DNA of 64,000 nucleotides, from the IMG/VR virus record IMGVR_UViG_2687453420_000004; one strand, given 5' to 3'. This stretch comes from an uncultured virus (IMG/VR IMGVR_UViG_2687453420_000004) (lineage: Duplodnaviria > Heunggongvirae > Uroviricota > Caudoviricetes). The position numbers were made by a program, and so were the translations under genes. Each line of letters begins with the position of its first letter. Position 1 is the stretch's first letter. Below are positions 59,933 through 61,625 of the stretch, in pieces. Under the pieces are notes generated by a model. The model worked only from the letters and a program-made list of their open reading frames with translations, searched no databases and was not told where the DNA came from.

Positions 59933-61548
59933 TGAAGGCAGGAATTTACAGCAGAAAATCAATGTTCACAGGTAAAGGTGACTCTGTAGAAAATCAAGTC
60001 CAAATGTGTAAAGATTATGGAAACAGATTAAATGTAGATGAATATTTAATATATGAGGATGAAGGGTATTCAGGAGGTAATATTAATAGGCCTAAATTTC
60101 AAGAGTTATTACAAGATGTTAAAAGAAAAAGTTTGACGTGCTTATATGTTATAGATTAGACCGTATAAGTAGAAATGTAGCAGACTTCTCTTCTACTCTT
60201 GAACTACTTCAAGACAATAATATAAGTTTTGTAAGCATAAAAGAACAGTTTGATACTTCTACACCGATGGGTAAAGCTATGGTTTATATAGCTTCTGTTT
60301 TTGCACAGTTAGAACGTGAAACCATTGCTGAACGTGTAAGAGATAATATGTTAGAACTCGCTAAATCTGGAAGATGGTTAGGTGGTCAAACTCCTTTAGG
60401 ATTTGAATCTGAAAAAATATCTTATTTTGATGCAGAAATGAAAGAAAGAACTATGTATAAACTTTCTCCTGAACCTAAAGAACTAGAATTAGTTAAATTA
60501 ATTTATAATAAATACTTAGAAACTGGATCTATACACCTAACATTAAAATATTTATTATCTAATAATATAAAAGGTAAAAATGGTGGAGAATTTGCATCCA
60601 TGTCTATAAATGATATATTAAGGAATCCTGTATATGCTAAATCTAATGAAATGGTACTTAATTATCTTGAAGATAAAGGCATGAATATATGTGGTACCGC
60701 TAATGGAAATGGTATCTTAATATATAACAAAAGAAACTCTAAGTATAAGAAAAAAAGTGTAAATGAGTGGATAGCTGCAGTTAGTAAACACAAAGGAATT
60801 ATACCTGCTAATACATGGCTAGAAGTTCAAAAAACTCTAGATAAAAATTCTAAAAAAGATACTCCAAGACAAGGAACATCTAAAAAGGCATTATTATCTG
60901 GAGTTTTAAAATGCAGTAGATGCGGTGCTCCTATGCGAGTTACTTATGGCAGGAAAAGAAAAGATGGCACTTCCATATATTATTATACATGTACTATGAA
61001 AGCTCATAGTGGCAAAACTAGGTGTGATAATCCTAATGTACGCGGGGACTATTTAGAAAAAAACATTATTACAGAATTAAAAAACTTAAATTCTGATGTA
61101 GTCATTAAAGGGCTTGAAGAACATAAAAAACAACTAGCTGCAACAACAGAAAATTCAATTATAAAAAATATTTCTAAAGAAATAGAAGAAAAAAAGAAAG
61201 AAATGGATTCTTTGATTAATAAACTTTCTAAAATAGAAAGTGATATAGCATCTGAATTTGTATTATCTAAAGTAGATTCTTTAGGAAAAGAAATTAAAGA
61301 ATTGGAAGTTAATTTATTAAAAAGAACCGATAAGAAAAAAGAAAACTGTGATATTGAACTTAATATTGAAATAGTGTTGCAAGCAATAAAGAATTTAATG
61401 ATTTTTTCAATAGTGTTGAGAGTTTTAAAGATGATGAATTAACTATACAAAGGAAAAGATATCTTCTTGAAAGAGCTGTAGATGAAATTAGAATAGATGG
61501 AGAAACTAATAGAATAGATATTGATTTATGGAGGGCTAAAAAAAATAG
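59932..61548 (+). CDS. Large serine recombinase (integrase), with apparent 1-nt deletions near 60124, 61389 and possibly 61540
   Basis: YSRKS, DEGYSG, YRLDRISR, LERETIAERV, CSRCG Zn ribbon; frame resumes EFNDFF...DIDLW. Confidence 0.92.
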
Positions 61549-61575
61549 CCTCCTCTATGGAATATGGTTCCAAAA

Positions 61576-61625
61576 TGTTGCAATTACATAAAGCATGTAC
61601 ACGCATGGCTTTATGATGTAAATAA
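61576..61625 (+). other. attR of prophage (crossover CA 61600-61601)
   Basis: P arm 61576-61599 is inverted relative to 1364-1387; host frame resumes. Confidence 0.88.

Follow-up and report, generated by a model that had tools for sequence, protein, structure and literature searches.

The window, the whole 64,000-nucleotide stretch of DNA analysed here, contains a Clostridium prophage of ~60 kb (about 1364-61601) that interrupts a gene for a GIDA-like FAD oxidoreductase (flavoprotein). A large serine integrase gene (int) was found at the right end of the prophage and a double-HTH gene at its left end. As read from the nucleotide sequence, the attP site of this prophage is located within one frame that links the end of int to the HTH gene. 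The features concerned are as follows, in coordinates of the window.

1110-1370, plus strand: 5′ fragment of the host GIDA-like FAD oxidoreductase gene, 86 codons (ORF list; Pfam GIDA/FAD_oxidored).
1338-1388: attL, with the host B arm, the crossover CA at 1362-63 and the phage P′ arm motif TAATTGCGAC at 1377-86.
1367-1834, plus strand: double-HTH (XRE-type) ORF, 155 codons from ATG 1367, its first codons being the P′ arm.
1824-1843, scored on both strands: terminator-like hairpin just past the HTH ORF.
59681-59932, plus strand: 83-codon HTH ORF with a one-base overlap with the integrase start (ORF list; Pfam).
59932-61548, plus strand: large serine integrase gene, broken as assembled (Pfam; comparison with G001).
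61538-61545, plus strand: A8 run, the proposed slippery site where the HTH frame opens (A9 in G001, L021, L001 and X1-X3).
61546-61548, plus strand: TAG that ends int when the run is A9.
61557-61601, plus strand: P-side part of the frame that leads into the HTH ORF on the circle (ATG 61557, second ATG 61575).
61575-61626: attR, with the P arm motif GTTGCAATTA at 61577-86, the crossover CA at 61600-01 and the host B′ arm.
61606-62139, plus strand: middle fragment of the host gene, which ends at a second insertion (ORF list; Pfam).
62136-62405, plus strand: orphan single-HTH tail of a second split integrase, the int of which lies beyond the window (64% identity to L146).

The nearest named relatives were prophages of Clostridium sporogenes strain LCP25S3_F4 (integrase 88% and HTH protein 96% identical), and homologues of the HTH protein were named also from C. 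botulinum and C. tetani. At least 3 attachment sites lie in the host flavoprotein gene, each beside a Gly-His codon pair (window, L026, L030, L145, L001). These sites, GHKHA/W, DTGH/VK and GHT[DE]A/, are used by three integrase clades, and tandem or stacked elements were seen in several genomes. Just upstream of int in the window are a CI-like gene (58679-59113) and two further small HTH genes. Since the 83-codon HTH ORF abuts the int start, the order on the circle is CI-like gene, small HTH gene, int, attP and double-HTH gene, all on one strand. The presence of a separate CI-like gene and of small HTH genes upstream of int means that the double-HTH protein need not be the main repressor.

The arms of the attachment site, GTTGCAATTA and TAATTGCGAC, were read from the sequence as centred on CA, with 61600-01 of attR equivalent to 1362-63 of attL. 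On this reading attP would be composed of imperfect inverted arms round a 2-bp CA centre; the crossover was placed by this symmetry and by one polymorphism, not by an empty attB. The same 32-nt inner arm spacing was found in L001+L020, L005+L036 and L007+L034. Crossover at CA makes the C at 61602 host DNA (a synonymous His codon) and the T at 1364 phage DNA. For the window, a crossover inside GCATG was discarded, as it calls for one more mutation, at 61602. Integration makes a hybrid promoter-like site at 1352-1380, composed of TGGTCA from the host, 17 nt, and TATAAT with a preceding TG from the P′ arm. This site had 10/12 matches; its predicted transcript start is downstream of ATG 1367, and the promoter scan overall was not above shuffles.

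G001, an IMG/VR provirus record that holds 94% of the sampled words of the window, is a tandem of two related prophages with an intact attP between them. The natural int-attP-HTH junction in G001 (L049) reads int, A9, TAG, the same 16 codons and then the HTH ORF. The original prediction had joined attR and attL of the window by hand and obtained an attP without a stop; the natural junction was identical to it letter for letter. The ACA TGC ATG given there is correct for attP even though attR of the window reads ACA CGC ATG, as 61602 is host and 1364 is phage. The A8 at 61538-61545, the TAG at 61546-48 and a frame that is free of stops from ATG 61557 to the junction, in register with ATG 1367, were also as described. 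Window positions 1361-8915 matched the left end of copy 2 in G001 and positions 6485-61607 matched copy 1 (L050-L054). This split match suggests recombination between tandem copies.

Pfam profiles for Resolvase (PF00239), Recombinase (PF07508) and zinc-ribbon (PF13408) matched the pieces of the window int in that order, as in large serine recombinases, and the integrases of relatives aligned over their full length. The int frame of the window was not intact. Compared with G001, where int is open for 543 codons from stop to stop and 539 from ATG, it has three one-base deletions in A-runs, at about 60121, 61388 and 61538. Over 55 kb the window and G001 were 99.8% identical with 11 non-edge one-base indels, and three of the 11 were As missing from the window, all inside int. 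Of the remaining eight, six leave G001 with the shorter ORF and two (49454, 52730) leave the window with it. In the stretch with int that was compared (59900-61607), G001 was 100% identical apart from the A-runs and 61602. At six one-base T-run differences (11353, 22194-22275, 42300, 55573) the window has the longer ORF and G001 the broken one; a 1572-codon ORF at 21735-26453 is an example of an ORF kept in the window and broken in G001.

Contigs of four public runs (X1-X4) from related strains were checked at the three A-run sites. The extra A was present at 60120 in all four covering runs, at 61387 in two of the three covering runs (the third carries T at 61390) and at 61537 in all three covering runs (X1-X3), which makes the last run A9. 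The int of L021 (96% identical) was intact and also had A9. The guess made earlier that the A8 at the end of int is really A9 is therefore borne out in G001, L021, L001 and the three contig sets that cover the site. Both assembly error and real decay are possible causes of the deletions in the window, and with three breaks in a single gene of 1.6 kb, real decay or a hypermutable run is the more likely. With three frameshifts in its int, the window copy may never form a circle. With A8 as assembled, the HTH frame is the +1 frame of int in the window, not the −1 frame.

To follow the frame across attP in related phages, we used 7 junctions, one natural (G001) and six made by joining attR and attL by script. 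Four pairs were at the same host site (L001+L020, L005+L036 from Candidatus Clostridium eludens, L003+L173 from Tepidibacter, L010+L174), and two, with integrases only about 52% identical, were at a third site of the same host gene (L004+L001, L030+L026). The frame across attP was open in all seven junctions, so attP lies inside the frame that runs from the int end into the HTH ORF in G001 and in 6/6 scripted pairs at two host sites, as had been proposed for the window. In each junction int ended in an A9 run that contains A AAA AAA in phase with the 0 frame, against A8 in the window. The 0-frame stop followed directly after A9, except in L005, where it was 24 nt later. The HTH frame was the −1 frame of int in 7/7 junctions; it opened at A9, passed the crossover and continued for 169-178 codons through the HTH ORF. 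The +1 frame closed at or before the crossover in every junction (within 2 nt in L003+L173). In the clade of the window the int 0 frame stops at A9 plus TAG before the P arm and does not read through across the crossover.

The spacer between the A-run and the P arm had no stop in the −1 frame in any of nine loci, and the arm was in frame in all nine. Where the −1 frame opens at the run (eight loci), the spacer spans 10, 13 or 16 codons; in L010 that frame opens further upstream and itself measures 18. Its sequence was almost wholly diverged between lineages, yet it was open and in frame, and the other two frames had stops in most of the nine loci. The product of shuffle probabilities over 8 lineages was 3.8e-5, which indicates that the −1 frame is open more than expected by chance. 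In a cruder motif survey, the P-arm frame was −1 of int in 10 loci and +1 in 7 unpaired loci (L002, L027, L058, L059, L060, L136, L137). The run of L060 is one A shorter, like that of the window, and looks like an A8 variant. The HTH gene had no match in the genomes of L002 and L011.

A9 was found in 7/7 lineages with an HTH partner and in one of the five lineages without a whole HTH partner. The HTH gene was absent at attL of L016/L033 and of L024. In L034, the attL of L007, the first 20 HTH codons are left (MLHRIATIPKHITFLLKK, then a stop). L007 was the only A9 lineage among those five, and it has kept the A9 run and the open −1 frame at its other end. AAA lysine codons are common in AT-rich genomes, so A9 alone is weak evidence.

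We examined the sequence round the A-run for features that accompany frameshifting. No stimulatory RNA structure was found 5-9 nt after the run. The only strong hairpin was the attP palindrome (z −4.3), which starts about 31 nt downstream of the run. An inverted repeat at 61530-61555 (GGAGGGCT...AGCCTCC) encloses the A-run, with matching arm changes, as compared by eye, in L001 and L003 and not in L007 and L023. Since the slippery site is within the GGAGGGCT/AGCCTCC hairpin and not upstream of it, this hairpin was rejected as a stimulator of frameshifting.

The ORF that starts at 1367 was matched by HTH_19/HTH_3 of Pfam in two stretches. In a structural model of the 171-residue form, residues 1-40 were of low confidence or disordered, and the remainder was predicted as two five-helix HTH units with a pLDDT of about 95. 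In the fold search the HTH protein came closest to P22 c2 and SinR, with every match above E 0.001. Like PHROGs and NCBIfam, this search gave only generic XRE/Cro-C1 repressor-like matches, all below curated cut-offs, and the idea that the HTH protein is a directionality factor thus gained no support from the naming searches. The second HTH (L049 3161-3673, residues 117-158) had a weak NCBIfam match to VC1465 Xer recombination activation factors, with 27 bits against a cut-off of 70. A comparison of the HTH gene with the phage collection gave no match, and with the HTH alignment as query the viral and genome collections each yielded no more than 2 loci. The C-terminus of the HTH protein is identical in attL and attP, and the change on integration is limited to the 5′ side.

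Natural proteins with the integrase and HTH parts joined were detected by profile search. P0139 (700 aa), P0160 (703 aa, on 5 contigs of which the longest is 39.6 kb) and the partial P0049 carry Resolvase, Recombinase, Zn-ribbon and HTH in one frame; P0161 has a different recombinase part. Int of G001 was 49% identical to residues 1-533 of P0139, end to end, as far as a shared KKK, and the extended HTH of G001 aligned to residues 543-700 of P0139 (E 6e-19). The 'integrase' of phage vB_CpeS-CP51 (NC_021325) is 655 aa long and has a C-terminal HTH. The prophage copy L081 is the CP51 integrase up to ...HSMSS and ends one residue later. Read-through of the P arm and the crossover in the int 0 frame occurs in P0139 and P0160, in L081 and in the prophage copies L055, L056, L135, L145, L147, L102 and L106. 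In these prophage copies the fused orthologues are shown cut at the crossover. A metagenome scan with P0160 gave 80 loci, the best with 67% identity, and an HTH after int in 0/80; the contig with the fused gene was not among them. The idea that a −1 slip would fuse integrase to the HTH part gains weight from the in-frame Int-HTH proteins of these sister clades.

The ORF at 62136-62405, at the second insertion in the same host gene, has 89 codons and no ATG, and its GTG overlaps the TGA of the host fragment. It was 64% identical to residues 579-667 of the 667-aa Int-HTH ORF L146. This similarity identifies it as the severed tail of an Int-HTH gene of the CP51/L146 type.

The explanation that we prefer, with a probability of about 0.55, is that int, attP and the double-HTH ORF on the circle form one translational unit that is severed by integration. 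The circle unit is probably read by −1 slippage at A9. On the circle, ribosomes (or RNA polymerase) would slip one base on A9, and an Int-HTH fusion of about 714 residues would be made beside plain Int. In the lineage of the window, a free 171-residue HTH protein from ATG 61557 may be made as well. As read from the sequence, integration cuts this unit, leaving Int at attR and the HTH ORF ~60 kb away at attL. The crossover is 4 nt before ATG 1367, and at attL the HTH ORF has no upstream codons, promoter or ribosome-binding site of its own. The prophage would make only plain Int and at most a 155-residue HTH protein coupled to the host fragment via ATGA. If the joined form is made only by the circle, HTH output would report the integration state. 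The double-HTH part could set the direction of recombination or act in the choice between lysis and lysogeny.

The main interpretation of the original prediction was that the circle encodes a separate HTH protein with ~16 extra N-terminal residues, made by reinitiation at ATG 61557, 8 nt after the int stop, and that there is no fusion. As a general account we consider this unlikely. ATG 61557 is the simpler route in the lineage of the window, and an ATG is located 7-8 codons before the P arm in G001/window, L001 and L023. N-terminal extensions were also present in six called proteins among 23 representatives (P0009, P0024, P0025, P0029, P0062, P0107), of which P0009, P0025 and P0029 fit such a start. 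At the start of P0009 (171 aa, 54% identical) stands a homologue of the peptide predicted for the window. The −1 frame of L030+L026 begins with an ATG that overlaps the int TGA stop, and a promoter-like site is found inside the int 3′ end (L049 3070-3097). However, the promoter scan was not above shuffles, and no Shine-Dalgarno sequence was seen by eye before any candidate ATG, including 61557 and 1367. A P-side ATG was absent in three of the six scripted pairs, L005+L036, L003+L173 and L010+L174, with the frame still open; a codon-by-codon check of L005+L036 gave no GTG or TTG on the P side either. In these pairs ribosomes would have to come from int. The 16-residue extension is thus present in G001 and the window and is not general. 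All five listed strain differences in the extension alter a residue, indicating that only openness is conserved, not the peptide. The extension behaves as a linker that has to be open and not as a folded N-terminus.

It is also possible, with a still lower likelihood, that ATG 1367 is the start codon in both states and the HTH protein never changes. The two states would then differ only in what drives it, the int operon on the circle and a host promoter with ATGA coupling in the prophage, and the upstream frame would be untranslated. ATG 1367 belongs to the phage half of the site and is present in attP and attL alike. The TGA stop of the host 5′ fragment (1368-70) arises at the junction and overlaps ATG 1367 as ATGA, an overlap found in the window, L020 and L036, so that a short HTH protein could be driven by a host promoter. 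In most called homologues the start codon precedes the conserved IAT motif by 3-6 codons. This reading leaves unexplained the upstream frame that is open in 9/9 loci and changes length only in whole codons, as well as the gene fusion in sister clades, and at the second host site the P′ side is without any ATG. That the open frame is a functionless relic of an older fusion in a decaying prophage is highly improbable: the window int does have three frameshifts, the HTH gene is lost in L024 and L016/L033 and L034 keeps only 20 codons, but the diverged spacer stays open and in frame and the int of relatives is intact.

The slippage unit may have a more specific role, which we put forward tentatively. 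An Int-double-HTH isoform would be made by way of A9 only from the excised or infecting circle, with a linker encoded by attP, and would sense integration and set the direction of recombination or the choice between lysis and lysogeny. The in-frame fusions of CP51 and P0139 and the frameshifted form would then be two versions of one device. Taken together, the comparisons confirm the observation made in the original prediction and partly support its interpretation.

Several known systems resemble parts of this arrangement. Broussard and colleagues reportedly described, in 2013, integration-dependent immunity in mycobacteriophage BPs and its relatives. The likeness to BPs that was drawn earlier for the window is loose: in both, attP is inside the coding frame of an HTH regulator and the integrated and free genomes encode different products. 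However, BPs uses a tyrosine integrase and here it is a serine integrase; in BPs the 3′ end of the repressor gene is cut and a degradation tag is removed, whereas here the cut falls on the 5′ side, without any degradation tag, and the severed upstream part is the int gene itself. In archaeal integrases of the SSV1 type, attP is inside the int gene, and integration likewise splits a gene that is whole only on the circle. Those enzymes are tyrosine recombinases of archaeal viruses in which the catalytic gene is split, whereas here an appended HTH part is split off.

Programmed −1 frameshifting or transcriptional slippage on A-runs is known in dnaX and in IS3-family transposases. As in these, ORF 1 has A AAA AAA at its end, the −1 frame holds an open ORF 2 and the two are fused into a single ORF in relatives. 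In contrast to them, there is no nearby stimulatory structure here and the shifted product is only predicted. The CP51 gene is also alike in that a large serine recombinase with a C-terminal HTH is encoded in the virion genome and the L081 prophage copy ends at the same point. It differs in having a single HTH in the 0 frame of the integrase, uninterrupted by a stop and lacking the A9 run.

In the Dehalococcoides ssrA-island, the serine integrase gene dsiB was described as always overlapping attL, and DsiB may be fully functional only on the circle (McMurdie et al. 2011; PMC3146451). The likeness is a serine integrase ORF that overlaps an att site at its 3′ end (PMC3146451). No HTH tail or slippery run was described for DsiB there, whereas int in the clade of the window stops before attP and continues in the −1 frame. 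Engineered integrase-RDF fusions indicate that a small partner on the C-terminus of a serine integrase changes which att pairs are recombined (PMC12286644). Those fusions are man-made with known directionality factors, whereas the HTH part here is a putative DNA-binding tail. Searches of the open-access literature brought up neither a serine integrase joined to an HTH part across attP by a slippery run nor an account of the clostridial family.

On the usual view, a serine integrase tells integration from excision with no more than a separate directionality factor. In the prophages studied here the gene layout itself differs by state: Int joined to a DNA-binding domain, or followed by one, can be encoded by the circle but not by the prophage. 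In tandem prophages the joined form arises again on the chromosome. For annotation, small HTH genes by attL represent one half of a feature, and over-long 'integrase' ORFs such as that of CP51 the other. Should the joined form be real, it would be a natural state-dependent integrase isoform and a new use of a slippery run, and it may be a source of self-limiting integrases for genome engineering.
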